Shown one piece after another: positions 3,865 through 55,032 of a DNA stretch of 64,000 nt; positions within the stretch are counted from its first letter, which is position 1, and every line of letters begins with the position of its first letter. Source of the stretch: Mobula hypostoma (lineage: Eukaryota); NCBI RefSeq assembly GCF_963921235.1, contig NC_086097.1:91080001-91144000 (forward strand), given 5' to 3'. The notes below the pieces were generated by a model. It saw only the letters and a list, made by a program, of their open reading frames with translations, did no database searches and was not told the DNA's origin. The translations under genes were made by a program, and so were the position numbers.

Positions 3865-5264
3865 TAAGGAAGGAGGGTTGAGTACGAGGTGACATGGGTA
3901 TAAAGCCAATGATTTGTGACACGTGGTTAGTCTCACTGCTTCACAACCTGAGTTCATCGCTGAGCTCTGCTGCTCCTTGGTTAGGGAGGGAACGTCGGTG
4001 GGGGGGGGGGGAGGGTTAGGTGTCAGTGAATTGCCCCATTGCAGGGGAAATCAGGGGGGAGTGCTGATGAGGGGTGAGAGGGTAAAATGGGAGGAGTGTA
4101 CGTGGACGCTGCAATGGTTGGTGCAGAAGCATGAGGCCTGCTTCCAGTCTGGGTGACCTGATGTTTGAAATGTAAAAACCCTATTCCAAAGGCAGTGGCG
4201 GGAGCAGGTTAATAATAGTTTTTAGACTGGATCTGAATAATGTACAGAAGTGATGGGAAGGGGCAGGAGAGTGAGAGCAACAGGAGGGCTTCTCCAGAGA
4301 GTTGGCATGAGCAGGGCAATCTGCACCAGAACAAAGCTGAGGGGGCAAAGGATTGTTTCTGTCAAGGACAGCTGAATGGATTTCATTGAGCAGACGACAG
4401 CAGAGCCACAGAGGTGAACCTCCCAGATTCATCACCTGTCTTTTTTATTAGAGAGTGTTGTACATGTCCCAAAGGCACGAGAAGGGAGTGCATTGGCCAC
4501 CACAAGGGACTGCTGATGATGACCTGGAGGAACCAAGTTGTGATAGATGTTCACAACAAAAGTCTGTACAAATCTTCACCATCAACTGTTGATAGAGGCT
4601 GCAATCTGACTCCATTAACCAGAAGGAAAGATTCAGCCTATGAGAGCCACAACAGATCGAGTCGCCCTCAAAGCCATGAGCCAACAAAATGCTCTGCCTT
4701 CTGCAGTACTGAGGATGGTCTTATAACTTATTCACTTATTTTTGGAGCAGCACACACAAAATGCTGGAGGAACTCAGCAGGACAGGCAGTTGCGATGCCC
4801 TTTTAGGTAGTACACACTGTGGGGCAGTGTTGGGGGAAATGCGTGCTCTGAGCTCTTGGTAGGTGCCAAGCAAGCAGACTGCTTTGACCTAGATAGTTCT
4901 GAGCTTCTTGAAATTTGAACTCACTTTGGCAGGCGAGGTGTATTCATCAAGCGCCGGGATTGTGCTTTGTAGGTGACGGAATAGCTCTGGGGTATCAAGG
5001 AGTCACTCACCACAGGATACCCAGCCCTTGACCTGCTAATTCTCTGGAAGACAACCAAAAAGTCTAAACAGAGCATGTGCTAGTTATTGAATGTGTAAGC
5101 AGGAACAAAAAGTACATGGACATCCTGCTTATTGTGTCTCCTTGCAAAGGAACTGGTTCCTGTCACAACCACAGGTGCAGTGTGAGGTGCAGGCTTGTGT
5201 ACATCTGGAGATGAGGCCACATGGTTCTGGGGAGCAGGTTGGATGAGGAATTCTCCATGAATAT

Positions 5265-10310: not shown

Positions 10311-10540
10311 TGGAGATACTGGAATAGAGATACACAAAAAATACTGGAGGAACTCTGCAAGTCAGGCAGCCTCTATGGAGGGAAATGAACAGTTAATGCT
10401 TCGGGCCGAGACCCTTTATCAGGAAGGTAAACAGCTGACTGTTTACTCCCTTCCACAGATGCTGCCTGACATGGTGAGTTCCTCTGACATTTTGGGCATG
10501 TTGCTCAAGATTTCCAGCATCTTCAGAATCTCCTGTGTTT
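10311..10540. mobile_element. Diverged palindromic Penelope-like element
   Basis: Arms ctggaggaactc..gtcaggcagc / gctgcctgac..gagttcctc; minus strand cctgataaagggtctcggcccgaagc is a degenerate hammerhead. Confidence 0.7.
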
Positions 10541-14844: not shown

Positions 14845-17800
14845 GTTGTGCCGACCCTCAAACCCTGCCTCCCATATAAGCCCCCACCTTAAATTCCTCC
14901 ATATACCTGTCTAGTAGTCTCTTAAACTTCACTAGCGTATCTGCCTCCACCACTGGCTCAGGCAGTGCATTCCATGCACCAACCACTCTCTGAGTAAAAA
15001 ACCTTCCTCTAATATCCCCCTTGAACTTCTCACCCCTTACCTTAAAGCCATATCCTCTTGTATTGAGCAGTGGTGCCCTGGGGAAGAGGCGCTGGCTATC
15101 GACTCCATCTATTCCTCTTATTATCTTGTACACCTCTATCATGTCTCCTCTCATCCTCCTTCTCTCCAAAGAGTAAAGCCCTAGCTCCCTTAATCTCTGA
15201 TCATAATGCATACTCTCTAAACCGGGCAGCATTCTGGTAAGTCTCCTCTGTACCCTTTCCAATGCTTCCACATCCTTCCTGTAGTGAGGTGACCAGAAAT
15301 GGACACAGTACTCCAAGGGTGGCCTAACCAGAGTTTTATAGAGCTGCATCATTACATCGCGACCCTTAAACTCTATCCCTCGACTTATGAAAGCTAACAC
15401 CCCATAAGCTTTCTTAACTACCCTATCCACCTGTGAGGCAACTTTCAGGGATCTGTGGACATGTACCCCGAGATCCCTCTGCTCCTCCACACTACCTAGT
15501 ATCCTGCCATTTACTTTGTAATCTGCCTTGGAGTTTGTCCTTCCAAAGTGTACCACCTCACACTTCTCCGGGTTGAACTCCATCTGCCACTTCTCAGCCC
15601 ACTCCTGCATCCTATCAATGTCTCTCTGCAATCTTTGACAATCCTCTACACTATCTGCAACACCACCAACCTTTGTGTCGTCTGCAAGCTTGCCAACCCA
15701 CCCTTCTAACCCCACATCCAGGTCATTAATAAAAATCACAAAAAGTAGAGGTCCCAGAACAGATCCTTGTGGGACACCACTAGTCACAACCCTCCACTCT
15801 GAGTGTACTCCCTCCACCACGACCCTCTGCCTTCTGCAGGCAAGCCAATTCTGAATCCACCTGGACAAACTTCCCTGGATCCCATGCCTTCTGACTTTCT
15901 GAATAAGCCTACTGTGTGGAACCTTGTCAAATGCCTTACTAAAATCCATATAGATCACATCCATTGCACTACTCTCATCTATATGCCTGGTCACCTCCTC
16001 AAAGAACTCTATCAGTCTTGTTAGACACGATCTGCCCTTCACAAAGCCATGCTGACTGTCCCTGATCAGACCATGATTCTCTAAATGCCTATAGATCCTA
16101 TCTCTAAGAATCTTTTCCAACAGCTTTCCCACCACAGACGTAAGGCTCACTGGTCTATAATTACCCGGACTATCCCTACTACCTTTTTTGAACAAGGGGA
16201 CAACATTCGCCTCCCTCCAATCCTCTGGTACCATTCCCGTGGACAACGAGGACATAAAGATCCTAGCCAGAGGCTCAGCAATCTCTTCTCTCGCCTCGTG
16301 GAGCAGCCTGGGGAATATTCCGTCAGGCCCCGGGGACTTACCTGTCCTAATGTATTTTAACAACTCCAACATCTCCTCTCCCTTAATATCAATATACTCC
16401 AGAACATCAACCTCACTCATATTGTCCTCACCATCATCAAGTTCCCTCTCATTGGTGAATACTGAAGAGAAGTATTCATTGAGGACCTCGCTCACTTCCA
16501 CAGCCTCCAGGCACATCTTCCCACTTTTATCTCTAATTGGTCTTACCTTCACTCCTGTCATCCTTTTTTTTTTCACATAATTGAAGAATGCCTTGGGGTT
16601 TTCCTTTACCCTACTCGCCAAGGCCTTCTCATGCCCCCTTCTTGCTCTTCTCAGCCCTTTCTTAAGCTCCTTTCTTGCTTCCCTATATTTCTCAATAGAC
16701 CCAAGCAACACACATAGAAGTTGCTGGTGAACGCAGCAGGCCAGGCAGCATCTCTAGGAAGAGGTGCAGTCGATGTTTCAGGCGATGCTGCCTGGCCTGC
16801 TGCATTCACCAGCAACTTTTATGTGTGTTGCTTGAATTTCCAGCATCTGCAGAATTCCTGTTGTTTGCGTTTTTAACCTCAATAGACCCATCTGATCCTT
16901 GCTTCCTAAATCTCATGTATGCTGCCTTCTTCCACCTGACTAGATTTTCCACCTCACTTGTCACCCATGGTTCCTTCACCCTACCATTCTTTATCTTCCT
17001 CACCGAGACAAATTTATCCCTAACATCCCGCAAGAGATCTGTAAACATTGACCACATGTCCATAGTACATTTCCCTGCAAAAACATCACCCCAATTCACA
17101 CCCGCAAGTTCTAGCCTTATAGCCTCATAATTTGCCTTTCCCCAATTAAAAATTTTCCTGTCCTCTCTGATTCTATCCTTTTCCATGATAATGCTAAAGG
17201 CCAGGGAGCGGTGGTCACTGTCCCCCAGATGCTTACCCACTGAGAGATCTGTGACCTGACCCGGTTCTTTACCTAGTACTAGATCTAGTATGGCATTCCC
17301 CCTGGTCGGCCGGTCCACATACTGTGACAGGAATCCGTCCTGGACACACTTAACAAACTCTGCCCCATCTAAACCCTTGGAACTAATCAGGTGCCAATCA
17401 ATATTAGGGAAGTTAAAGTCACCCATGATAACAACCCTGTTATTTTTGCACCTTTCCAAAATCTGCCTCCCAATCTGCTCCTCTGTATCCCTGCTGCTAC
17501 CAGGGGGCCTATAGAATACCCCCAGTAGAGTAACTGCACCCTTCCTGTTCCTGACTTCCACCCATATTGACTCAAAAGAGGATCCTGCTACATTATCCAC
17601 CCTTTCTGTAGCTGTAATAGTATCCCTGACCAGTAATGCCACCCCTCCTCCCCTTTTTCCGCCCTCTCTATCCCTTTTAAAGTGCTGAAATCCAGGAATA
17701 TTGAGAATCCATTCCTGCCCTGGTGCCAGCCAAGTCTCTGTAATGGCCACTACATCATAATTCCATGTGTGTATCCAAGCTCTCAGTTCATCACCTTTGT

Positions 17801-18591
17801 TCCTGATGCTTCTTGCATTGAGGTACACACATTTCAGCCCTTCTACCTTACTGTCTTTACATCGTTTATTCTGCTTCTCTTTCCTCAAAGCCTCTCTGTA
17901 TGTTAGATCTGGCTTTACTCCATGCACTTCTTTCACTGCTCTATCACTCTGGGTCCCATCCCCCTCGCAAATTAGTTTAAACCCTCCCGAACCATGCTAG
18001 CAAACCTACCTGCAAGGATATTACTCCCCCTCAAGTTCAGGTGCAACCCATCCAATCTGTACAGGTCCCACCTTCCCCAGAAGAGATCCCAATGATCTAA
18101 AAACCTAAAACCCTGCTCCCTGCACCAACTCCTCAGCCATGCATTCAACTGCCATCTCCTCCAATTCTTACCATCACTGTCACGTAGCACTGGCAGCAAT
18201 CCTGAGAATGCCACCCTTGAGGTCCTGTTCTTCAGCCTTCTGCCTAGTTCCCAAAACTCACACTTCAGGACCTCATCCCTCTTCCTGCCTATATCATTGG
18301 TCCCAACATGTATCACGACTTCTGGTTGCTTTCCCTCTCGTACCAGGATGTCATGCACCCAGTCGGAGACATCCCGGACCCTGGCACCCGGGAGGCAACA
18401 AACCATGCGGGTGTCCTTCTCACGTCCACAAAATCTCCTGTCTGCTCCATTGACTATAGAGTCTCCAATGACGACAGCTCTCCTCTTCTCCGTCCCACCC
18501 TTTTGCACCACAGGGTCAGACTCAGTGCCGGAGGCCCTGCCACTGTGGCTCACACCTGGTCGGTCGTCCCTGCCAACAGTATCCAGTATTT
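14845..18591 (-). mobile_element. Young near-full-length CR1 LINE: SGNH-esterase ORF1 (to 17972) and ORF2 APE+RT (17936-14858), split by a 174-bp insertion
   Basis: ORF1 motifs VIGDS, HVGTND, DGLHL; EN motifs LNARS, ITETW, GDFN, SDH; RT motifs [23 protein letters not shown]. Confidence 0.95.
16704..16877 (+). mobile_element. Palindromic Penelope-like insertion with 13-bp TSD
   Basis: TSD ctcaatagaccca at 16691-16703 and 16878-16890; ~50-bp inverted arms; same family as the 30261 and 37042 copies. Confidence 0.9.
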
Positions 18592-20076
18592 TGGTGCTGT
18601 GTCTCTCTATGATTGGCCAAGGGTTACAAGTGTTGATCAAGGCATGTGATGCTGCTGCCCTGCCACTTCTTAAAATTCTACCAGGATTTTATTGAATATC
18701 TCGAGTCAAAGGAGCATGATAAAAGGTTACTCTTCTAAAGTTAAGATGTTCTTTCAGGAAGCAAAATTGATGTGTAGAATTTTGTGCCTTTCTCATCACC
18801 ACTGAAGCTAATTTAAAGTGAACTATGATAATAATTCCCAGATGACTTTGTCCGGGGTAGGTAGTGTTTGCAGTGAACGTTGACTATAAACTGAGTGGAC
18901 AGTCAGCCTTGCGGTCACATCCAATAACTTAAATGGATGAGTGTTTTGAATTTCTTAACCAGCAAAATATGTGATCTTTACTCTTGGCTGGAGAGTTTAT
19001 TTGAAGCAGCCAGATTACTCACACATTGTTGTTACTGTTTTGAACTTCACATTAAATCCCTTCTTGAACCTGTCATTATTTGTGTCACCTCCTTTGGATC
19101 ACAGCTATCCAGGGTGTCTGTAGTCCTCTACTTCTTGACACTTCCAGATCCCAGTTTTCTATCACTTCAAAATGGCAATTATGTTCTTGGCTGAATTAGC
19201 CTGAGCTGTGAACATCCTTCTTTAAATCTCTCCACTTGTCAATCTCTCCTTTTTTAAGTTATTTATTAAAGCCTGCTTCTTTGGCTAAGCTGCTGAAACA
19301 GTTGGCTCTCTGTCAGATTCTGTCTGTTAATACTGTTAACATTTATATAAAGGTATAGAAAGGGTGAAAGCAGGGAGGGTGGATAAAAACAAGTGGTGTC
19401 GCAGCAACAACTTTGTACTCAACATTAGTAAGACCAAAGAATTGGTTATGGACTTCCGAAAGGCTGAGACGAGGGAACCCGCATCGGACCTCATCAAGGG
19501 ATCAGCAACGGAAAAGTGAGCAACTTCAGGTTCCTTGGTGTCAATATCTCTGAGGATCTGCCCTGGACCCAGCATATTGATAGAGTTACATAGAAAGCAT
19601 GACAGCAGCTATATTTCATTAGAAAGCTCAGGAATTTTGATATGTCACCAAAGACACCTGCAAATTTCTACTGATGTACTATGGAGAGCATTCCAACTGG
19701 CTGCATTGCTGTCTGGTACGGGAGGTGGGCGTGATGGGACTACCGAACAGGATCAAAATAAACTGCAGAAAGTTGTGAACACAGTCAGCTCCATCTTGAG
19801 TAGCAGCCTCCGTAGTATTCAGGACATCTTCAAGGAACGATGCCTCAAAAAGGCAGCATTCCATCACTAAGGACTCCATCACCCAGGACATACCCTTTTC
19901 TAATTACTACCATCAGGGAGGAGGGACCAGAGCCTGAAGGACACACTCAATGATTCAGAAACAGCTTCTTCCCCTCTGCCATCAGATTTTGGAATGGACA
20001 GTGAACCCATGAACCCTACCTCACTCCTTCCTTTTCTCTTTTGCACTACTTAATTAATTTAACTTTTTATATATAT

Positions 20077-23000
20077 AGACCATAAGACCATAAGGCATAG
20101 GAGCAGAATTAGGTCATCTGGCCCACCGAGTCTGCTCTGCCGTTCCATCATGTCTGATCCTTTTTTTCTATCTCCTCTCAACCCCAGTTCCCAGCCTTCT
20201 CCCCGTAACCTTTATTGCCATGTCCAATCAACAACCTATCAATCTCTGTCTTATATACACCCAACGACCTGGCCTCCACAGCTGCATGTGGCAACAAATT
20301 CCACAAATTCACCATCCTCTGGCTGAAGAAATTTCTCCACATCTCTCTTTTGAAAGGACACGCCCCTACCCTGAGGCTGTGCCCTCTTGTCCTAGACTCT
20401 CCCACCACGGGAAATATCCTTTCCACATCTACTCTGTCTAGCCTTTCAACATTTGAAAGGTTTCAATGAAATCCCCCCTCATCCTTCTGAATTCCGGAGA
20501 GTACAGACACAGAGCCAATAAACGTTCCTTGTATGATAACCCTTCCATTCCAGGAATCATTCTTGTGAACCTCCTCTGGATCCTCTCCAATGCCAGCTTT
20601 TCATTTCTAAGATGAGGGGCCTAAAACTGTTCACAATTCTCAAGGTGAGACCTCATCAGTGCCTTATAAAGCCTCAGCATCACATCCTTGCTCTTGTATT
20701 CTAGACCTCTTGAAATGAATGCTAACATGACATTTGCTTTCCTCGTCACCGACTAAACCTGCAAGTTAACCTTCAGGGTGTTCTGCACAAGGACTCCCAA
20801 GTACCTCTGCATCTCACATTCCCGGATTTTCTCCCCGTTTAGAAGATAGTCTGCACATTTATTTCTACTACCAAAGTGCCTGACCATGCATTTTCCAACA
20901 TTGTATTTCATTTGCCATTTTCTTGCCCATTCTCCTACTTGTTCTGCATTGTACCTGTTTCCTCCACACTACCTGCCCCTCCACCAATCTTCGTATCATC
21001 TGCAAACTTGATAACAAAGCCATCTATTCCATCATCTAAATCATAAAAAGAAGCGGTCCCAACACCGACCCCTGTGGAACACCACTAGTCACTGGCAACC
21101 AACCAGAAAAGGATCCTTTTATTCCCACTCACTGCCTCCTACCAATCAGCCAATGCACTAACCATGTTAGTAACTTTTGTGTGATACCATGGGATCTTAA
21201 CTTGGTAAGCAGCCTCATGTGTGGCACCTTGTCAGAGGCCTTCTGAAAGTCCAAATATAGAACATCCACTGCATCCCCCTTGTTCTACTTGTAATCTCCT
21301 CAAAGTATTCCAACAGGTCCTTCAGGCAGGATTTTCCCTGAAGGAAACCATGCTGACTTTGTACTATCTTGTCCTGTGTCACCAAGTACTCCAGCACCTC
21401 ATCCTTAACAATTGACTCTAACATCTTCCCAGCCACAGAGGTCAGGCTAACTGGTCTATGATTTCCTTTCTGTGCCTTCCTACTTTCTTAAAGAGTGGAG
21501 TAACATTTGCAATTTTCTAGTCCTCTGGCAACATGCCAGAGCTCAATGACTTTTGAAAGATCATTTCTAATGCCGCCACAATCTCTAACTCTACCTCTTT
21601 CAGTCCCTAGAGTGCAGTTCATCTGGTCCAGGTGACTTATGTACCTTTAGGTCTTTCAGCCTTTTGAGCACCTTCTCTGTTGTAACAGAAACTGCACCCA
21701 CTTCTCTTCCTTCATACACTACAACATCAGGCATACACAGTGAAGACTGACGCAAAATACACATCAGCCATTTCCTTGTATCCCATTATTAATCCTCCTG
21801 CCTCATTTTCTGGTGGTCCTATATGCACTCTCATTTCTCTTTTATTTTTAACATTTTGAAAAAAACTTTTACTATCCATTTTGATATTCTTTGCTAGCTT
21901 GCTTTCCGATCAGAGATAAAAGTGGGAAGATGTGCCTGGAGGCTGCGGAAGTGAGCGAGGTCCTCAATGAATACTTCTCTTCAGTATTCACCAATGAGAA
22001 GGAACTTTTTGATGGTGAGGACAATATGAATGAGGTTGTTCTTCTGGAGTATATTGATATTAAGGGAGAGGAGGTGCTGGAGTTGTTAAAATACATTAGG
22101 ACGGATAAGTCCCCAGGCTGCTCCACGAGGCAAGGGAAGAGATTGCTGAGCCTCTGGCTAGGATCTTTATGTCCTCGTTGTCCACGGGCATGGTACCAGA
22201 GGATTGGAGGGAGGCAAATGTTGTCCCCTTGTTCAAAAAAGGTAGTAGGGATAGTCTGGGTAATTATAGACCAGTGAGCCCTACGTCTGTGGTGGGAAAG
22301 CTGTTGGAAAAGATTCTCAGAGATAGGATCTCTGGGCATTTAGAGAATCATGGTCAGATCAGGGACAAGTCAGCATGGGTTTGTGAAGGGCAGATCATGT
22401 CTAACAAGCCTGATAGAGTTCTTTGAGGAGGTAACTAGGCATATAGATGAGGGTAGTGCAGTGGATGTGATCTATATGGATTTTAGTAAGGCATTTGACA
22501 AGGTTCCACACGATAGGCTTATTCAGAAAGTCAGAAGGCATGGGATCCAGGGAAGTTTGTCCAGATGGATTCAGAATTGGCTTGCCTGCAGAAGGCGGAG
22601 GGTCATGGTGGAGGGAGTACATTCGGATTGGAGGGTTGTGACTAGTGGTGTCCACCAAGGATCAGTTCTGGGACCTCTACTTTTTGTGATTTTTATTAAT
22701 GACCTGGATGTGGGGTTAGAAGGGTGGGTTGGCAAGCTTGCAGACGACACAAAGGTTGGTGGTGTTGCAGATAGTGTAGAGGATTCTTGGAGATTGCAGA
22801 GAGACATTGATAGGTTGTAGAAGTGGCCTGAAAAGTGGCAGATGGAGTTCAACCCGGAGAAGTGTGAGGTGGTACACTTTGGAAGGACAAACTCCAAGGC
22901 AGAGTACAAAGTAAATGGCAGGATACTTGGTAGTGTGGAGGAGCAGAGGGATCTGGGGATACATGTCCACAGATCCCTGAAAGTCGCCTCACAGGTAGAT

Positions 23001-24210
23001 AGGGTAGTTAAGAAAGCTTATGGGGTGTTAGCTTTCATAAGTCGAGGGACAGAGTTTAAGAGTCACGAGGTAATGATGCAGCTCTATAAAACTCTGGTTC
23101 GGCCACACTTGGAGTACTGTGTCCAGTTCTGGTCGCCTCACTATAGGAAGGATATGGAAGCATTGGAAAGGGTATAGAGGAGATTTACCAGGATGCTGTC
23201 TGGTTTAGAGAGTATGGATTATGATCAGAGATTAAGGGAGCTAGGGCTTTACTCTTTGGAGAGAAGGAGGATGAGAGGAAACATGATAGAGGTATACAAA
23301 ATTTTAAGAGGAATAGATAGAGTGGATAGCCAGCACCTCTTCCCCAGGACACCACTGCTCAATACAAGGGGATATGGCTTTAAGGTAAGGGGTGGGTTCA
23401 AGGGGGATATTAGAGGAAGGTTTTTTACTCAGAGAGTGGTTGGTGCGTGGAATACCCTGCCTGAGTCAGTGGTGGAGGCAGATACACTAGTAAAATTTAA
23501 GAGACTACTAGACTGGTATATGGAGGAATTTAAGATGGGGGGGTTATATGGGAGGCAGGGTTTGAGGGTCTGCACAACAATATGGGCTGAAGGGCCTGTA
23601 CTGTGCTGTACTATTCTCTGTTCTATGTTCATATTTCATCTTTTCCCTTCTAAAGATTTTTTTAGTTGCTCTCTGTAGGTTTTTAAAAACTTTCCATCTT
23701 CTATCTTCCCACTAATTTTTGCTTTGTTGTATGCCCTTTCTTTTGCTTTTACAATAGCTTTAACTTCCCTTGTCAGCCACTGTTGTACTATTTTACCATT
23801 TAAGTATTTCTTCATTTTTGGAATAACATGTCCTGCACCTTCCTCATTTTTCCCAGGAACTCATGCCATTGTTGTTCCGCTGTCATCCCTGCCAGCAGCT
23901 GCTTCCAATTTATTTTGGCTAACTCCTCTCTCATACCACTGTAATTCCCACTGAAATACTGCTACATCAGACTTTACTTTCTCCCTATCAAGTTTCAAGT
24001 TGAACATATTCATATTGTGATCACTGGTTCCTAAGGGTTCTTTATACCTTTAGCTCCCTAATCGTCTCTGGTTCATTACATAACACTCCATCCAGCATAG
24101 CTGATCCCCTAGTAGGCTCATTGACAAACTGCTCTAAAAAGCTATCTGTTAGGCATTCAACAAACTCACTCTCTTGAGATCCATTACCAACTTGATTTTC
24201 CAATCGACCA
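20077..24210 (-). mobile_element. Older CR1 LINE, itself interrupted at 21907-23630
   Basis: agaccata-repeat tail at 20077-20095; GESRTRGHSL, GKMLESI, SQHGF.QGKSCL and FVECLTDSFLEQ motifs. Confidence 0.85.
21907..23630 (+). mobile_element. Young 5'-truncated CR1, same subfamily as the 14845-18591 copy
   Basis: Near-identical RT peptides to the 14858-16711 ORF, with a few frameshifts and stops; ttctatgttc tail. Confidence 0.92.
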
Positions 24211-28268: not shown

Positions 28269-30320
28269 CTCCATGATATGTACTGTCTATGTGTATTCAT
28301 CTTGGACAATTCAGAGAAAGTAATCGATCAGTAATTTCTCCTGAGACAAAGCAACTATGAGTGGGACAGGTCAGATTATGGGGGCCTCATGGGAAAAAGC
28401 AGTGGTGAAGCAAAGAATAATCGAGAGAGAATTCTGTACCACAGGCGCCTGAATGGATCGCCGTCACCTTATAGCCTTGAATTCATTCACACCATCATTT
28501 TTATCTGTCCAACAGAATGAGGATGGTGTTTAGCAACACATTGGTCACTCTCAAATTTAGCAGGATGCATGACGGGAGCAAGTAACCTAATTAAAGAACA
28601 AGATCAAAGCTTCACCCCCGAGTCATAGGCATGTGGTGAATTTAGATTCGAGTCATGCTACTCAATGAGTCATCTCACTGCAAGCACCACTTGTTTACAA
28701 CTGTTTATAAATCTTAACTCAGCAGGACTGCCCTTTTTATATTGTTTAAACTTCCTTAATAAATGAACCGAATAAATAATAAATTCTGGAGGAAAGAGTC
28801 GATGGCAGTAAAGATGCGAAGATGAATCCTGCAAAACCCCTCTAGCATACCCAGAATATCCCACAGAATCTCTAAACCGAAACATTAGCTCTGTTTATCT
28901 TTCCATGTGTAAATTAATGGGAATGTGGGGAGAATAAAAATAGGATTAAATTAGAATTAGTGTACCTGGGTGGTTGATCCAAGGGCTTGTTTCAATGCTC
29001 CATCTCTTTATGAGATGCTGCCTGACTTACTGAGATTGGCCAACATTTTCTGTTTCTATACTACAAAATACAATAGCCTATGACTTTCAGTTAGCAGGAA
29101 CCATTAGTTTTAACACAGCAAGGGTCTACAGAGAATCTGCAAGAACATACTTGATTAAATGGCTATTGGAGGTGTTGAATGAGGATAAATATGCATTTAC
29201 GAACAAGGACAATTCTCTGCTCTTGGAGAAGGTCCAGAGACCATTTACTGGATTGGTATTAAAATAAATCATGGTGATTGCTTGTACACATGGGGAATTA
29301 TCTGTGGATAGAAAAGCTCAGGGAGAAGAATCAGCACAGTGTCAGGCCTGCATGTGCAGGCTTTTCCCAGTCTCCACTCAGCTAGCAGGAGTCACCTGCC
29401 ACTCGTTTTCAACTCATCACCTGCAGCCTATTTAAACCTAGCTCTCATCCACAATTGCTGTTCACTCATCCAACTAACCAGCTTCAACCAATTGCTCCTA
29501 GCCTTCAGTTACCTTGTTGCCTTATCAAATTACGTATCTGTTCTCTCTTGTTCTCTCTTGGCTTGTTATTTTGCAGTTTATTATTAAACTGATCGCTCAC
29601 CACTAAATCTTCTTCACTACTCTGTGATTGGGTCAAGCCTCCTCTGCATTTCCTGACAGAATAAATGACCAGTGATTGACCCAGCAGAGTTTGCTTGCCT
29701 GAAGGAAGTTGTCTGTCGACATGTTCGTACAATCCAGAAGCAGCAGTGAATCATTCACCATCTGCTCCCAACCCACTCTCCGTTTGGATTCAGCAACCCT
29801 GTGCCAGTCAACCTTCTCCCTTGGAGCTCCGGATGCCAGTGCCCAAACGCGTCCATGGATCGCCAACCTGAAGTTCAACTTCCTGTTCCAGTGTATCTCA
29901 CACTTCAAGCTCTGGCCAGCTCTGCACATTATGGACTGAGCCAAGGTCACCTTCGTCATTTCTCTCTTGACTGGGTGAGCTCTGCCGTGGGCCGCCACTA
30001 GCTGGAACAATAAAACCCCCATTTTCAACCAACATGAGGAATTCACTATGGAAATGAGCTGGGATTTCGACTATCTAGGAAGTGGAAGGGCAGCAGTGGA
30101 TCGGATATTTCACCTGCATCAAGGCTCAGGCTCAGTGATGGATTACACGGTGTAAGTCAGGATCCTCGCAGCGGGCTGTGGCTGGAAGGCAGAAGTGCTG
30201 CTGACCCATTACCATCACAGCCTCTCGGTGCGCTTGAAAAAACGAGCTGTCTACTTGGGTAACATACATCAAAGTTGCTGGTGAACGCAGCAGGCCAAGC
30301 AACATCTATAGGAAGAGGCG

Positions 30321-30356
30321 CAGTCGACGTTTCAGGCCGAGACCCTTCGTCAGGAC
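30321..30356 (-). ncRNA. Minimal type I hammerhead ribozyme motif (inverted arm)
   Basis: Reverse complement reads gtc-CTGACGA-agggtctcggcct-GAAAC-GTC-gactg. Confidence 0.7.
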
Positions 30357-30360
30357 CAGT

Positions 30361-30398
30361 TAGTCCTGACGAAGGGTCTCGGCCTGAAACGTCGACTG
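30361..30398 (+). ncRNA. Minimal type I hammerhead ribozyme motif
   Basis: tagtc-CTGACGA-agg gtctcgg cct-GAAA-C-GTC-gactg: full conserved core, stem II agg/cct, stem I tagtc/gactg, palindromic ACGT stem III. Confidence 0.75.
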
Positions 30399-33300
30399 CG
30401 CCTCTTCCTATAGATGCTGCTTGGCCTGCTGCGTTCACCAGCAACTTTGATGTATGTTGCTTGAATTTCCAGCATCTGCAGAATTCCTGTTGTCTACTTG
30501 GGTGATGCCTCTAAAGCCTCATCACTCTGGCCCTCTGTATTGACAAGCGTCTTATGGAATGACCCTCCAAATCACAGCAGGCAACTTTCCTGACTGGATT
30601 CTGGTCTCCCTACCAAGCCTATCTCACACCCCTTCTGCATCATGGCCAATAATGGATATCTCTTGAGGTCTGGGATGGTCAGAGCACATACATGGCCTAT
30701 GCATGTGAGCATTGGATAGCACCATGAATCCATCCAATTCCTTCTTATCAACTCACACAACACTCCTCTCATCTTGGGTTACCCCTAGCTCTCCACTCAC
30801 AACCCTCACTTTGCCTGGTCATCTGGTTCATTGCTGAGTTTGGGACCCACCTGCTTACAACCTCAGTTGACTTTACCTTGTAAATCCATGGAGACGAAGA
30901 AGCACTGAACTCCCACAAGAATACCACAACTTAGATATCGCCTTCAGGAAAAGAGAAGCCGGCACCCTGCCGCCTCACAGACCGCAGGACTGCAATTGAC
31001 CTCCTTTCGGGCACCGTCCCTTCCTGAGGCCATCTGTTCTCCCTCTCTCCTCCCGAGATGCAAGCCATAAATGACTACATTGCTGAAGAGCAACAACACA
31101 GCTTCATTTGACCATCCCATTCCCCAGAGAGTGCAGGACCCTTCTTTGTGAAAAAGAAAGATGGGTCTCTTCATTCCTGCATTGACTCAACAAAATCGCC
31201 ATTACAAACCGCTACCCTCTCCCTTGATGGATAGCACATTCAAAGCACTCCGCGCGGCCCAATCCTTCACCAAACTGGATCTACGGTGTGTGTACAATCT
31301 GACCCGCATCTGCTGGAGGATGAACGGAAGACACGTTCATAATGCCCACTGGGCACGACGAATACTTGGTGATGCCTTTCGGTCCTTACAACAGTCCAGC
31401 TGTTTTCTAAGTCTTCATCAATGAGGTGCTTCAAGACAAGTTACACAGGTATGTGTTCATCTACCTTGATGACATCCTCATCTTCTCCAGGGACCCCCAA
31501 AGACCACGTCTGTCACATCCTTTCAGTCCTTCAGCAACTCCTCAAAAACCAACTGTGCTACAAGTTAGGAAAATGCTAGTTCCACATCCCAGTTATTTCC
31601 TTCCTGGGCGATGCCCTTTCACCAAAGGTAAAAGCATGGACCCAGAGAAAGTGTGTGCTGCTGTTGAATGGCCCCAGCTGCACTTCTCCAACTTATACCG
31701 CTGGTCATCAGAAACTACAGCTAAACTGCTGCTCCTCTCACCTCCCTCACCAAATCACCTATCTTATGGATAACCTGGTCTGCTGCTGTAGACCACGCTT
31801 TCACAGAGCTCAAGTGGTGCCTCACACCACTCCCATTTTCCACCACCTGAACCTCTCCAGAGCTTTTGTGGTAGAGGTGGGCACATCCGATGTGGGTGTC
31901 AGGGCCATCCTCTTCCGGTGAGGACCAGGTGGGAAGAAACATCCTTGTGCCTTCTTCTCGCACAAATTCAACTCTACACAGCTTTGTTATGGAGCAGGAG
32001 ACAGGGAGCTAATTGCCTTGGAGGAATGGAGACGTTGGCTGATGGGGAAACACCAAGCCCTTCCTGATCTGCACTGAACACCAGAACTTCAAATCCATTC
32101 AACACACCTGCCATCTCAACCCACGTCAGGCTTGCTTGGCCCTCTTCTTCGAACAACTCAACTCCTCCTACCAACCCCGCTCCAACAACAGTAAGGCGGT
32201 CGCCCAGTCACGACAGTTTGACCCAGCTGAAACGGAGATCAACCCTCAGCCCATTCCATTCTCCTAGATCATAGCCCCAATCATCTGGGACCTTAAGAAC
32301 CCGATCCGCCGGGCCCTACGGCACGAGCCTGCTCCGGCCGACCCAGCTGACAGCTGCATGTACTGCTCATGCTGCCGGCAATGCACTCTGAGGCACTCCA
32401 GTGAGCCACTCTTTACCCCTCTCCAGCCATCCAGGAGCATGACAAACTCTGGATTTACTGCAACGCCTATGCTGGTGGCCCACCATGATTGCAGATGTAT
32501 GTCAGTTTATCACTGAACATGCCCAGTCCAATTTCTCCAACCAATGTTCTTCTAGGCTCCTACCAGTTCATCAACAGCCTTGGTTCAACAGCACCATGGA
32601 TTTTATCACGGGTTTGCCACCTTCCGACCACGGTGATCATGACAGTGATAGTAGTTCTCCAAGGCAGCCCACTTCATTGCCGTCCACAAGCTTCCATCAG
32701 CTGCTGAGATGGTGGACCCAGTTCTCCAACATGTAGTGGTCTCCATGGCTTCCACCAGGACATTGTGTCAGAGCAGGACCTACAGTTTGTCTCCCACTTC
32801 TGACGAGCTTTCCACTCTTTCCTCCACAACTCATTCAGTTTGTTCCCTGGCTATCATCTGCAGACCGACAGTCAGTCAGAAGAAGCCAATTGGCGATGCT
32901 TTGCTACTTCTAACCCTTCCACATAGAAGAGGTTTGTCCTCCTCTGCCACGGGTGTGTCACCTTTTGAAGTGCTCCATGGCTACCAGCCCCCGTTGTTCC
33001 CTGTGGAGGAACCAACAGTGGAGATCCCGTCTACCACGGCCCTGGTTCGCTGCTGCTGGAATGCGTGGTAGGGGACACAGGGGGCAATCCTAGCTGCCAG
33101 CTATGACTTCTGCCTCTCTCCTAGAGAAAGGGAAAAAAGAATCTGAATTTATATAGCATTTTCAATTATCTCAAGTCCCAAACAGCCAAAGTACCTTCTT
33201 TAATGTAGATACTGCTACAGATTGGGAAAGTATCAGCAAAATTGCACATAGCAAGCCTCCACATTAGATATTGACCAGATCATGTGAAGAAGTGTCAGTT

Positions 33301-36789: not shown

Positions 36790-37029
36790 GACAGAGTAAC
36801 ACAACTAATGGAGTTGCTGCCTCGCGGCTCCAGTTACCCAACTTCAGTCCCACCTCTGGTGCTGTCTGTGTGGAGTTTTCATGTTCCCTGTGTGACCAGG
36901 TGGATTTCTCCCAAAGAGTGGGGTTGATGGGTTATTTGGCCTCTGTAAATCACCCCGATGGGGATGGGTGTCAGGAGAATTGGATGGATACTACGGACAC
37001 ATGACAGAAAATTAGTTACAAGGAAACAA
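36790..37029 (+). mobile_element. V-domain SINE, host of the 37042 insertion
   Basis: tRNA-like head (gagttgctgcctcgcggctccag...) and tgctgtctgtgtggagttt..atgttc core. Confidence 0.6.
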
Positions 37030-37041
37030 TGAGGGAAGTGG

Positions 37042-37615
37042 AAACACAAGGATATCTGCAGATGCTGGAAATTCAAGCAACACACATCAAAGTTGCTGGT
37101 GAACGCAGCAGGCCAGGCAGCATCTCTAGGAAGAGGTACAGTCGACGTTTTGGGCCGAGACCCTTCGTCAGGACTAACTGAAAGAAGAGCTAGTAAGAGA
37201 TTTGAAAGTGGGAGGGGGAGGGGGAGGTCCAAAATGATAGGAGAAGACAGGAGGAGGAGGCATGGAGGCAAGAGCTGGACAGGTGATTGGCAAAAGGGAT
37301 ATGAGAGGATCATGGGACAGGACCCCTTGCCCATCCTCTGGGTTTCCCCCCCTCCCCCTTTTCCTTCTCACTGGGCCTCCTGTCCCATAATCCTCTCATA
37401 TCCCTTTTGCCAATCACCTGTCCAGCTCTTAGCTCCATCCCTCCTGCTCCTGTCTTCTCCTATCACTTTGGATCTCCCCCTCCCCCTCCCACTTTCAAAT
37501 CTCTTACTAGCTCTTCTTTCAGTTAGTCCCGACCAAGGGTCTCGGCCTGAAACATCGACTGTACCTCTTCCTAGAGATGCTGCCTGGCCTGCTGCGTTCA
37601 CCAGCAACTTTGAAG
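37042..37615 (-). mobile_element. Long palindromic Penelope-like insertion with ~235-bp arms and 12-bp TSD
   Basis: TSD tgagggaagtgg at 37030-37041 and 37616-37627; arms ~37087-37322 and 37378-37613; hammerhead cores mutated in both arms. Confidence 0.9.
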
Positions 37616-38694
37616 TGAGGGAAGTGGGATTGTTCTGAGAACAAGCATTGGCTACGTCATATGAAAAGATGGCATGGTTATACTTTTTCAAAACAGTGAC
37701 AGTCACCCGAGAGGGCAAAGGAGGCCTTGAATTAATTGCTCAACTGAAGGATGTTGCCCCTTCTGCATAGTTCTGGGGTGGAAGTCCATGGAAAGTATAG
37801 AACTGTCATTAGCTTTGGCACATTCTCTTCTCAACTGAGAGAAGCAAGTAAGAGTGATTGCCAATCCACTAAGACTTGCCCCAGTACTTTGCTTAATGCA
37901 GCTTAAGGCAGAATGAATGTAATTTGGGAATAAAAGGTACAAGATTTGTGACCTGGCCTGTGTAGTTAGTGATGTTCTTCAGTCTTGGACAATGATATAA
38001 TCACTACAGTTGATCTCATGCTTTCAATTTCTAGTTTGCCCTAGTCTGCATTGGGCGAGACTGTGGAATTTCATCTGGCTGAATATTAGATGGTCTATCG
38101 CAGGTAGAGAATGGTTCTTGGAGTAACTCAGGAATACGCAGGAAGCATAGTATCATACCAAAGCATAAGTCATGTTTATCCACTGGTATTGAGGAGAGGG
38201 TAACCACTGGCACAGTAATCTCTGTCAAAGGGGAGATCGATTAGTTCCACTCCCCCAACTCTTCCTCAAAACCCTGCACATTTTTCAACCTTACGTGCTT
38301 ATCAAACACCAATCGTCAACTTCAATTATTTAGGTAATTTTCTTTTGAACCTATCACCACCATGCTTTCAGGCAGTGCACTTCGAATCACAACAATATGC
38401 CTGATTAAAATTAGTTCTCATGAACCCTGTAGGTCATTTCATCTGTGACCAATCCTCCTTCCTTAATGCTTTGTCAAAATGCCTCCAAATTTTGAAACCA
38501 AATACTAAATTACTTTTAACCGGGAGGGAAATCTCAGCTTGCACGTTCTTCTTTTGTTGCTGGCACAGTAACAATATGAACACCTGAAGCCAGTGTTAAT
38601 GCCCTCACAATGGCCTAATTAATAACAGAATCTTGTAGATCTGCTACGGGTACAAGAGTTACAACTAACTTATAATTGGTGACTAATAAGTGCC

Positions 38695-40911: not shown

Positions 40912-41029
40912 CTGTGTATAGACGACTGTCTATTCTTCTCCATAGATGCTGCCTGGCCTGCTGAGCTCCTCCAGCATTTTGTGTGTGTCACTCTGGATTT
41001 GCAGCATCTGCAGATACGCTTGTATTTGT
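40912..41029 (+). mobile_element. Short Penelope-like 3' fragment with 11-bp TSD
   Basis: gatgctgcctggcctgctgag..cagcatctgcaga; TSD aatta(t/c)agacc at 40901-40911 and 41030-41040. Confidence 0.75.
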
Positions 41030-47000: not shown

Positions 47001-47879
47001 CAGGTGCCTTTTAAATACTGAGATCATATCTGCGTCCACCACTCCCACTAACACCTCGTTCTTCAGTCTCACCACCCTCTGAGTGAAGAAGTTCCCCCTC
47101 ATGTTCCCCTTAAACATTTCACTTTTCGCCCTTAACCCATAATCTCTAATTCTAGTCTCACTCAACCTCAGTGGAAAAATCCTGCTTGCATTTACCCTTC
47201 ATAATTTTGTATGCCTCTATCTGTCATGGTCCGGTCCGTGAAGTCCATATTCCGGTTCACGGTCCGGTCCATCGACCCTTGCTCCAGGTTTTCCTGTCTA
47301 CCCTGTTTCTGTTCCTGTTAAGCACTAATTAAGGCAGCTGATGCTTGTTGGGGCTGGCTGCATAAATACCTTCAGAGAGCAGGATGTGGCTGCTGGATTG
47401 TTCTTGTCCTTACTCCTTGTATCCCTTCCCCTGCCTTCTGTTTCCTTGCCTGAAGCCTTGCCGGTAACTCTTGCCTCGCCTGAAGTTCTTGTTTCGCCTT
47501 GCATTGCCTGAAGCCTTGCCTTGTCTTGCTGGTAACTCTCGCCTCGTCTCACCTTCAGTCCTGTCCTGGAGCCACCCTGTACCTAGCTGCATTCCTGTCC
47601 CTTGCCTCCGCCAGGTAAGTCAGGGCGTATTGCCGTTACCTACGGTTGGTTCTGTCCCTTGCCTCTGTTGGGTAAGCCAGGCCGTCTTAGCATTACCTGC
47701 GGTTGGTTCTGTCCCTTCCTGCCCCTTGCCTCCCTTGGGTAAGCCAGGACGTCTTGCTGTTACCTGCGGTTGGTTCTGTCCCTTCCTGTCCCTTGCCTCC
47801 GTCCGGTGGTGAACCACGCCTTGACCAGGAGTACCACGCCATGCCCAGGAGTACCGCGCCCTGCCCAGGAGGAGCATCC

Positions 47880-48450
47880 AACCTCCAGCCTCCAGCCAAG
47901 CCTCGCCTCTCCTCAAGTCTCTAGCCTCCTGCCTCCTGCCAAGCCTTGCCTCAAGTCTCTAGCCTCCTGCCTCCTGCCAAGCCTCACCTCAAGTCTCTAG
48001 CCTCTAGCCTCAAGCCTGAAGACTCCAGCCTCCTGCCTCGCCTCGCCTCTAGTCTATAGCCTCAAGCCTGAAGACTCCAGCCTCCTGCCTCGCCTCACCT
48101 CTAGTCTCTAGCCTCAAGCCTGAAGACCCCAGGTCCTGCCTCCTGCCAATCCTCGCTTCTAATCTCAAGCCTCAAGCCTGAAGAACCCAGCCTCCTGCCT
48201 ACTGCCAAGCCTCTTCTCAAGTCTCTAGCCTCTAGCCTCAAGCCTGAAGACTCCAACCTCCTGCCTCCTGCCAAGCCTCACCTCAAGTCTCTAGCCTCAA
48301 GCCTGAAGACTCCAGCCTCCTGCCTCTTGCCAAGCTTTGCCTCAAGTCTCTAGCCTCTAGCCTCAAGCCTGAAGACTCCAACCTCCTGCCTCCTGCCAAG
48401 CCTCGCTTCTAATCTCTAGCCTCAAGCCTGAAGACTCCAGCCTCGTCCTG
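47880..48450 (+). repeat. Minisatellite in LTR1 (~55-65-bp unit)
   Basis: Unit ctccagcctcctgcctcctgccaagcctcgcctc(t/a)agtctctagcctcaagcctgaaga. Confidence 0.9.
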
Positions 48451-49439
48451 CCTGCCATCCAAGCCTCGACCTTGCCTAGTTCTGGGGTCTGAGCCAGAGG
48501 CAAGACCCAGATACTGGGTCCTTGTCCAGTCTCTGGCTCGGAGTCCAAGCCCGGGCTCCTAGCTCTCTTGTCCAGTCCTGTTCCAGGTTCCCGGTTTTCC
48601 TGTCCATGTGCTTGTCCTCGCCCTGTATCCTAGTTCTGTCCCTAGTACTTCAGTGTCTGTGTCTTGCACTTGGGTCCATTCCTAGCTACCTCCTTATGAC
48701 AGAACGATCCAACTACCCATGGACCCAGCGACACAAACACTGTCGTTTTCCTCTTGCCAGCTGGGGTTCCTTTCTGTTAAATACCCTCCCACCCACCCGG
48801 GTCTCCATAGTCTGGATACCCTGTTTGGTCGCCAGGAGACTCCCGTAGGGGCGGTGGAGGGGGAGCGGATACGGTCATGGTCCGGTCCTTGAAGTCCGTA
48901 TTCCGCTTCACGGTCCGGTCCATCGACCCTTGCTCCAGGATTTCCTGTCTACCCTGTTTCTGTTCCTGTTAAGCACTAATTAAGGCAGCTGATGCTTGTT
49001 GGGGCTGGCTGCATAAGTACCTTCAGAGACCAGGGCTTGGCTGCTGGATTGATCTTGTCCTTACTCCTTGTATCCCTTCCTCTGCCTTCTGTTTCCTCGC
49101 CTGAAGCCTTGCTTTGTCTTGCTGGTAACTCTTGCCTCGTCTCGCCTTCAGTCTTGTCCTGAAGCCACCCCGTACCTAGCTGCATTCCTGTCCCTTGCCT
49201 CCATCGGGTAAGCCAGGCCGTCTTACCGTTACCTGCGGTTGGTTCTATCCCTTCCTGTCCCTTCCCTCCATCGGGTAAGTCAGGCCATATTGCCGTTCCC
49301 TACGGTTGGTTCTGTCCCTTCCTGTCCCTTGCCTCCATTGGGTAAGCCAGGCCGTCTTGCCCTTACCTGCTGTTGGTTCTGTCCCTTCCTGTCCCTTGCC
49401 TCTGTTGGGTGGTGATCCGCACCCTGCCCAGGAGGAGCA

Positions 49440-50265
49440 CCCAGCCTCCAGCCTCCAGCCTCCAGCCAAGCCTTGCCTCGCCTCAAGTCTCTCGCCTCCT
49501 GCCGCAAGTCTCTCGCCTCCTGCCAAGCCTCGCCTCAAGTCTCTAGCCTCTAGTCTCAAGCCTGAGGACTCCAGCCTCCTGCCTCCTGCCAAGTATCACC
49601 TCTAGTCTCTAGCCTCAAGCCGGAAGACTCCAACCTCCTGCCTCCTGCCAAGCTTCGCCTCCAGTCTCTAGCCTCTAGCTTCAAGCCTGAAGACTCCAGC
49701 CTCCTGCCTCGCCTCACCTCAAGTCTCTAGCCTCTAGCCTCAAGCCTGAAGACTCCAGCTCCTGCCTCTTGCCAAGCTTCGCCTCTAGCCTCTAGCCTCA
49801 AGCCTGAAGACTCCAGCCTCCTGCCTCCTGCCAAGCTTTGACTCTAGCCTCTAACCTCAAGCCTGAAGACTCCAGCCTCCTGCCTCCTGCCAAGCCTCAC
49901 CTCTAGTCTCTAGCCTCAAGCCGGAAGACTCCAGCCTCAAGCCTGAAGACTCCAGCCTCCTGCCTCCTGCCAAGCCTTGACTCTAGTCTCTAGCCTCAAG
50001 CCTGAAGAATCCAGCTCCTGCCTCCTGCCAAGCCTCACCTCCAGTCTCTAGCATCAAGCTTCAAGGCTGAAGAATCCAGCCTCCTGCCTCCTGCCAAGCC
50101 TCGCCTCTAGTCTCTAGCCTCAAGCCTGAAGACTCCAGCCTCCTGCCTCCTGCCAAGCCTCGCCTCTAGCCTCTAGCCTCAAGCCTGAAGACTCCAGCCT
50201 CCTGCCTCCTGCCAAGCCTCGCCTCTGGCCTCTAGCCTCAAGCCTGAAGACTCCAGCCTCGTCCT
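49440..50265 (+). repeat. Minisatellite in LTR2 (longer array of the same unit)
   Basis: Same unit as in LTR1, with more copies. Confidence 0.9.
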
Positions 50266-50577
50266 GACTGCCAGCCAAGCCTCATCCTTGCCTAGTTCTG
50301 GGGTCCGAGCCAGAGGCAAGACCCAGGTACTGGGTCCTTGTCCAGTCTCTGGCTCGGAGTCCAAGCCCGGGCTCTTAACTCCGTTCCAGGTTCCCGGTTC
50401 TCCTGTCCATGTGCTTGGCCTCGCCCTGTATCCTAGTCCTGTCCCTAGTACTTCAGTGTCTGTGTCTTGCACTTGGGTCCATTCCTAGCCACCTCCTTAT
50501 AACACTATCAAATTTACCCTCATTCTCTTACGGTCTAGGAATAGAGTCCTAAGCTTTTCAACCTTTTCCTATATCTC

Positions 50578-54045: not shown

Positions 54046-55032
<987 letters not shown>

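Follow-up and report, generated by a model that had tools for sequence, protein, structure and literature searches.

The stretch of DNA analysed here, a 64,000-nucleotide (nt) window of the ray Mobula hypostoma (contig NC_086097.1, forward-strand positions 91,080,001 to 91,144,000), contains at its positions 30261-30490 a 230-nt palindromic insertion, insertion A, that bears a hammerhead ribozyme motif on each strand. The insertion is bounded by 13-nt direct repeats (30248..30260 on the left and 30491..30503 on the right) that are 100% identical and that we read as a target-site duplication, an exact 13-mer being expected at a given place by chance with a probability of about 1.5e-8. Its host is a decayed long terminal repeat (LTR) retrotransposon that occupies about 29900-33100 on the + strand and is interrupted by many stops. 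Downstream of A on the + strand, Pfam matches to RNase H (above cut-off in one of two models) and to the integrase zinc-binding domain (below cut-off) lie within this host element, and the insertion site itself, which has no Pfam match, is presumably gag-like.

Insertion A is built from two inverted arms, 30261-30356 and 30363-30458, of 96 nt each, which differ only at the pair 30302/30417 and are separated by 6 nt. A preliminary description of this locus had reported the 13-base-pair (bp) duplication, the 230-bp insert and the 96-bp arms with one mismatch, and our repeat analysis recovered the same coordinates. It had also described a 6-nt spacer; six nucleotides (30357-30362) do lie between the arms, but they are not foreign, being the repeat family's own upstream sequence, with identical letters in a sister insertion, B. 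Thus, the + copy of A begins at 30357. With family positions numbered from hammerhead C3, the insertion consists of a main 5'-truncated copy on the + strand (30357..30490, family positions -9 to +124) and an inverted, tail-less and likewise 5'-truncated copy of the element's 3' end on the - strand (30261..30356, -3 to +92). The + copy continues for 32 nt (30459-30490) past its arm, forming a one-sided tail; this tail lengthens to 35 nt if the family is taken to include the first three letters of the right duplication. Both outer junctions of A are element 3' ends.

Each arm carries one minimal hammerhead motif. A purpose-built descriptor (CUGANGA, helix II of at least 3 bp, GAAA, paired 15.2/16.2, UH, and helix I of at least 3 bp) found exactly two sites in the window, 30366-30393 on the + strand and 30353-30326 on the - strand, and found none in 300 dinucleotide shuffles (0/300). 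In the + motif (30361..30398), helix I pairs 30361-30365 with 30394-30398 around the core at 30366-30393, and the predicted cut after 30393 falls at the C of GUC. The - motif (30321..30358, core 30353-30326) is predicted to be cut between 30326 and 30325, and its helix I comprises three native pairs and two chance G.U pairs across the junction. Both motifs agree with the minimal type I description in their core, a helix I of 4-5 bp, a palindromic 15.2-16.2 without loop 3, and an extra base before helix II, the last being present in the G.U register that the predicted fold prefers (0.97 versus 0.02). The preliminary description had anticipated much of this, including a core on each strand, cleavage after 30393, the type I form with a loop-less palindromic helix III, and the use of a minimal-hammerhead descriptor as a check, and the two sites in 64 kb bear it out. 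Among the 40 variable places listed, from 65 in the contigs of the sequencing runs considered below, none falls inside the hammerhead cores.

Other matches to these sequences were examined and rejected. An Rfam match to mir-3926 (50.9 bits, under the gathering score of 82) reflects the near-perfect hairpin, and an Rfam match to UnaL2 over the tail reached an E-value of 9.6. Pattern matches in metagenomes (0 with a first pattern, 25 with a second), viral contigs (1) and prokaryote genomes (1) are attributed to chance because all 27 of them cover 20-27 nt only, without the rest of the motif.

Predicted RNA folding places both motifs at a severe disadvantage. The hairpin formed by the whole palindrome has a predicted energy of -205 kcal/mol on the + strand and -210 kcal/mol on the - strand, whereas the best fold in which the + hammerhead is forced reaches -132 kcal/mol, a predicted cost of about 73 kcal/mol. 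With the antisense arm present, the predicted probability of helix I stayed under 1e-37 for all transcript lengths modelled, compared with 0.29-0.96 for a solo copy lacking that arm. At such values, "competes", the word used earlier for hairpin folding against the catalytic fold, is too weak. Even two solo copies favour an inactive duplex in a crude model (-30 versus about -10 kcal/mol). Furthermore, the antisense arm is transcribed before the motif arm on either strand, so read-through RNA would be a long hairpin and not a ribozyme. No second same-strand motif is present in A to serve as a dimer partner; in a published study of such motifs the monomer showed no cleavage and dimers cleaved weakly (PMC4209133). 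We predict that both motifs of A are locked in one 96-bp hairpin and inactive in place, because of the hairpin's energy, the prior transcription of the antisense arm, the lack of a same-strand partner, the U found at position 11.1, and the mere three native pairs of the - helix I.

Further copies of the same repeat in the window follow the same plan. Sister insertion B (37030..37627, with a 12-nt duplication) lies in mirror orientation, with a tailed copy on the - strand (37322-37042) and a tail-less copy on the + strand (37323-37615); its arms are 240 nt long and 95% alike, and both of its hammerhead cores are damaged. Sister insertion C (16691..16890, with a 13-nt duplication) has 51-nt arms that are 96% alike, and both of its copies begin downstream of the hammerhead 5' half, leaving no complete motif. 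An older relative, D (10330..10540), shows the same head-to-head plan with arms 77% alike, and an older single copy, E (40934..41027, + strand), retains the 3' part only at about 80% likeness. Clear target duplications were not found for D and E, where candidates of 9 and 11 nt with one mismatch were not accepted. Short, far older stretches related to this 3' repeat were also seen at 842-892 and 4746-4789 (-).

Comparison of A, B and C reveals which features of the insertions are constant and which are not. In family positions, the arms of B span -151 to +129 (tailed) and -206 to +86, and those of C span +47 to +140 (tailed) and +16 to +95. Across the six arms, 5' ends are scattered from -206 to +47, while 3' ends form two classes some 32-45 nt apart, tail-less at +86 to +95 and tailed at +124 to +140, and each insertion has one arm of either class. 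The tails measure 32 nt in A, 43 nt in B and 45 nt in C; the duplications of 13, 12 and 13 nt are unrelated in sequence. In B and C it is the tail-less arm that reaches further in the 5' direction, by 55 and 31 nt, so neither arm is a plain copy of the other, and in A the tailed arm is the longer by 6 nt. The inversion point differs among all sister insertions in the window. Insertion A differs by 8-10% from B and from the - copy of C, whereas its own arms differ at 1 of 96 sites; by this comparison a single source lineage gave rise to both arms, unless they were homogenised. The youth that had been ascribed to the insert is supported.

Contigs of four sequencing runs, compared over 29900-30900, place A in a wider population of copies. 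In the DNA run X1, summed contig depth is 2.4-6.0 million over the insert and 24-820 over the left flank, and the other two DNA runs, X5 and X9, show similar contrasts; summed depth is not a copy number, but in three animals the abundance of the repeat family is clearly very high. A run tentatively taken as RNA, X15, covers the repeat and leaves the flanks uncovered. Among the 15 best-supported of 524 joints, 14 are left-arm to right-arm inversion joints, and all 14 have distinct end pairs, with overlaps of 0-3 nt (mean 2.0) and depths of at most 132. A joint that bridges the flanks without the insert, from 30239 to 30508, occurs in 1, 3 and 4 contigs of X1, X5 and X9, respectively; these contigs most likely derive from other copies of the host retrotransposon. 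One X5 contig of single-copy depth matches the left flank at about 98%, and the matching piece ends at 30247, immediately ahead of the duplication. This end point is consistent with an empty matching site but does not demonstrate one. The letters common to both arms of A at 30400 (G), 30421 (T) and 30454 (A) are in the minority in all three DNA runs, at about 38, 35 and 20% in X1 and about 2, 1 and 1% in X9, and are also commoner in X1 than in X5. These shared minority letters hint at a young subfamily.

We propose, with a probability of roughly 85%, that insertion A is a young, dead-on-arrival insertion of the 3'-terminal repeat of an abundant Penelope-like retroelement, in which a tailed and a tail-less copy stand head to head and the hammerhead motifs are passengers sealed within a hairpin. 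In the typical insertion described for endonuclease-positive Penelope-like elements (PLEs), a 5'-truncated copy is adjoined by an inverted one, and a tail of 30-40 bp is present on one side only (PMC8557442), and inverted 5'-truncated copies with a one-sided tail are also described in PMC3846280. Minimal hammerheads are known from PLE terminal repeats, where opposite-strand pairs lie 100-700 bp apart in Schistosoma (PMC4209133). Opposite-strand hammerhead pairs and the insertion plan of A are, in other words, already described in print. In the window we see the head-to-head inverted 5'-truncated copy (in A, B, C and D) and variable 5' truncation against a fixed 3' region. Because the same plan recurs with differing inversion points and agrees with the published PLE pattern, A is most likely a truncated insertion and not a self-propagating palindromic element. 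The Penelope-like origin with an inverted 5' copy put forward in the preliminary description is supported by the plan of A, B and C and by these papers; its idea of a distinct non-coding palindromic derivative moving as a unit is not supported, since inversion points differ in every sister insertion and in 14 of the 14 inversion joints listed.

Such an insertion could arise as follows. The element's GIY-YIG endonuclease would make a 13-nt staggered cut, and each host 3' end would prime reverse transcription on element RNA. One complementary DNA (cDNA), begun at a distal start, would include the tail, and the other would begin at a start about 30-45 nt inside. Both cDNAs would stop early, in A just past the hammerhead, and their ends would then be joined using hardly any microhomology or none, after which fill-in would create the duplication. 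With element 3' ends at both outer junctions, the polarity is the one that cDNA priming at each nick would give, and A would retain two complete cores only because each cDNA extended a few bases beyond the motif. In vitro, the Poseidon protein of Anolis, a predicted dimer, cuts and extends both strands, reverse transcription proceeds from two starts that bound the tail, and the hammerhead is dispensable for insertion (PMC11167929).

Alternatively, the same element may have reached the same dead end by another route, in which one cDNA, or an antisense template, folded back and primed its own extension to give the inverted arm, and the endonuclease later trimmed the tail from one arm. This would alter the mechanism only and not the identity of the element, and we consider it the less probable route, though a substantial contender. 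Taken alone, A is compatible with either two-nick priming or fold-back. The 6 nt by which its tailed arm is longer at the 5' end are loop-like, and its arms share private letters; self-priming has been proposed by Arkhipova et al. (PMC3846280), and endonuclease resolution has been proposed for the tail (PMC8557442). The sister insertions are harder to reconcile with fold-back, since the 5'-longer arm is the tail-less one in B and C, and an extra trimming step is needed. The junction of A, moreover, would offer at most one T.G pair for priming, and the in vitro cutting and extension of both strands makes the tail the gap between two reverse transcription starts (PMC11167929).

A second possibility, which we regard as improbable, is that the palindrome represents a small non-autonomous element in its own right, whose transcripts would be cleaved by the hammerheads they carry and whose re-insertion in one piece would depend on Penelope proteins. 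In favour of this, A has two complete cores, with the start of each arm lying no more than 9 nt from the core; retrozymes have been described as non-autonomous Penelope derivatives (10.64898/2026.07.22.740005), and terminal repeats by themselves suffice for the mobilisation of sequence in trans (PMC3846280). Against it, no junction is common to two insertions in the window and all 14 listed inversion joints differ, C lacks a complete motif and the motifs of B are damaged, the hairpin buries both motifs of A, and retrozymes are arranged head to tail where A is head to head. Finally, a miniature inverted-repeat transposable element (MITE) or foldback DNA transposon, holding a hammerhead-like word by chance in its inverted repeats, would explain long near-perfect inverted arms with a target duplication but is very unlikely and largely refuted by the sister copies, whose arms are not terminal (a one-sided extension of 32-45 nt remains), solo copies also existing; the unvarying terminal inverted repeats and the short duplication of fixed size that the preliminary description had named as the mark of a MITE are not what we find, arm lengths being 51, 96 and 240 nt and duplications varying in length (12-13 nt) with unrelated sequences.

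Several observations weigh against a Penelope-like terminal-repeat insertion made by two-nick priming. In the search for a coding partner, no reverse transcriptase (RT) or GIY-YIG frame could be tied to the repeat among 44 window frames compared with Pfam, the window having 195 frames of at least 75 amino acids, and RT and GIY-YIG motifs had no convincing match in six frames. Three protein searches that looked for the repeat running on into an RT or GIY-YIG frame yielded 1 match among 1938 candidates, 1 of 1, and 4 matches; all were exonised pieces or low-complexity matches, and none led to a coding frame. Two of the protein matches, P0005 and P0006, cover the proline-rich start only. Rfam covariance models, which the preliminary description had suggested as a check, gave no hammerhead match up to an E-value of 10 nor at the gathering score, a miss that is expected because the motif lacks helix III. 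The G10.1-C11.1 pair of the minimal PLE hammerhead is absent from the arms of A, where position 11.1 is U in both (30385 and its mirror) and helix II is closed by G.U or A-U, although C occupies 11.1 in the - copies of B and D. The junction of A shows no microhomology except one possible T.G pair, and the near-identity of its arms could also reflect fold-back synthesis or later arm conversion. The joints considered above are the best supported, are flagged "between: not known", and form a set in which A's own junction would not appear. Lastly, at 12-13 nt the duplications exceed the 8-10 bp reported in rotifers (PMC3846280).

Pieces of the repeat have also entered gene models of Mobula hypostoma and M. 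birostris by exonisation. The repeat has one frame free of stops on each strand (37033-37635 on the + strand; 36882-37367 on the - strand), so that palindrome B gives a spurious 201-amino-acid frame. The same frames are exonised in Mobula gene models of STARD3NL X3, TIMM8A X1/X2 and one uncharacterised protein.

Directly upstream of helix I, at the spot where both arms of A begin, the family sequence contains a branch-point-like word followed by a pyrimidine tract and by AG dinucleotides at two places, -8/-7 and -4/-3. Together they form a candidate intron end (37505-37528 on the + strand in B, with a mirror near 37171-37194 on the - strand). Relative to the branch-point consensus, the word has one change in B and is a full match in X1 and X5 contig ends. 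In one Mobula gene model the repeat-derived part begins at the codon predicted from use of the first AG, an entry point that genomic truncation would fit too. Joint ends fall at -4 to 0 in 8 of the 28 listed, where edge bias is likely as the reference stops at -9 and -3. In Drosophila virilis, the Penelope intron ends at helix I (PMC4209133). It is conceivable, though we think it doubtful, that the candidate intron end sets a discrete 5' end or a template stall point and that the mini-palindromes record a splicing-linked step of Penelope retrotransposition. If so, many thousands of mini-palindromes in ray genomes would form a dataset able to decide between two-nick priming and fold-back.

As a single locus, insertion A carries little weight, being a neat and young case of an insertion pattern already in print. 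The family is the more useful object, because its many short insertions, each with two dated arms, two classes of 3' end and scattered junctions, could be used to test how inverted copies are built. Transcribed palindromes would also give long double-stranded RNA, which could feed silencing or editing.

The rest of the window holds features of other kinds. A fairly intact CR1-like long interspersed nuclear element (LINE) lies at 14861-18688 on the - strand, with GDSL-esterase, endonuclease and 631-amino-acid RT frames, and sister insertion C sits between its endonuclease and RT parts; an inverted partial copy of this LINE, 93% alike, is found at 21906-23581. A single 328-amino-acid frame at 54046-55032 (+) matches CECR6/TMEM121 (E 1e-64) and is a host gene. 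A long C/T-rich repetitive stretch at about 47200-50500, with sub-repeats about 80% alike, is satellite-like.

Our findings can be set beside several known systems. In L1 twin priming, two primings at one staggered cut are joined through microhomology and a non-overlapping upstream part of the element is inverted; in A, by comparison, the inverted arm repeats the same 3' sequence. A literature search found no published account of this ray repeat family, the supplements of PMC4209133 and 10.64898/2026.07.22.740005 being covered partly or not at all. The closest counterparts are the endonuclease-positive PLEs (Penelope/Poseidon and Neptune), with which A shares 5' truncation, a head-to-head inverted copy, a one-sided tail, a target-site duplication and a terminal-repeat hammerhead. 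In contrast to the insertion units described for these elements, only 96-134 nt of the 3' repeat are left in A, the whole insert is palindromic, and no coding frame is seen.

At the level of the ribozyme, the motifs of A resemble the metazoan PLE hammerheads of Cervera and De la Pena (2014, PMC4209133) in the CUGANGA/GAAA/UH core, the 5-bp helix I, the loop-less palindromic 15.2-16.2, the extra base before helix II, and the close pairing of motifs on opposite strands. They differ from the motifs presented there in having U and not C at 11.1, in a helix II of 3-4 bp versus 7-8 bp in the Schistosoma families, and in lying 12 nt apart where 100-700 bp is reported. Poseidon of Anolis carolinensis (PAc; Frangieh et al. 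2024, PMC11167929) likewise has two classes of 3' end bounding the tail, and in both PAc and the family of A the 3' ends follow the hammerhead cut site at a distance of about 60-110 nt; the PAc reading frame starts at helix II, whereas no start codon opens a long frame there in the family of A. The non-LTR retrozymes described by Li, Clavereau and Pollet (2026, 10.64898/2026.07.22.740005), reported in one cartilaginous fish, are also non-coding kin of Penelope terminal repeats with a type I hammerhead. Yet retrozymes are head-to-tail tandems with at least two same-strand motifs, whereas insertion A is a single head-to-head pair with one motif per strand.

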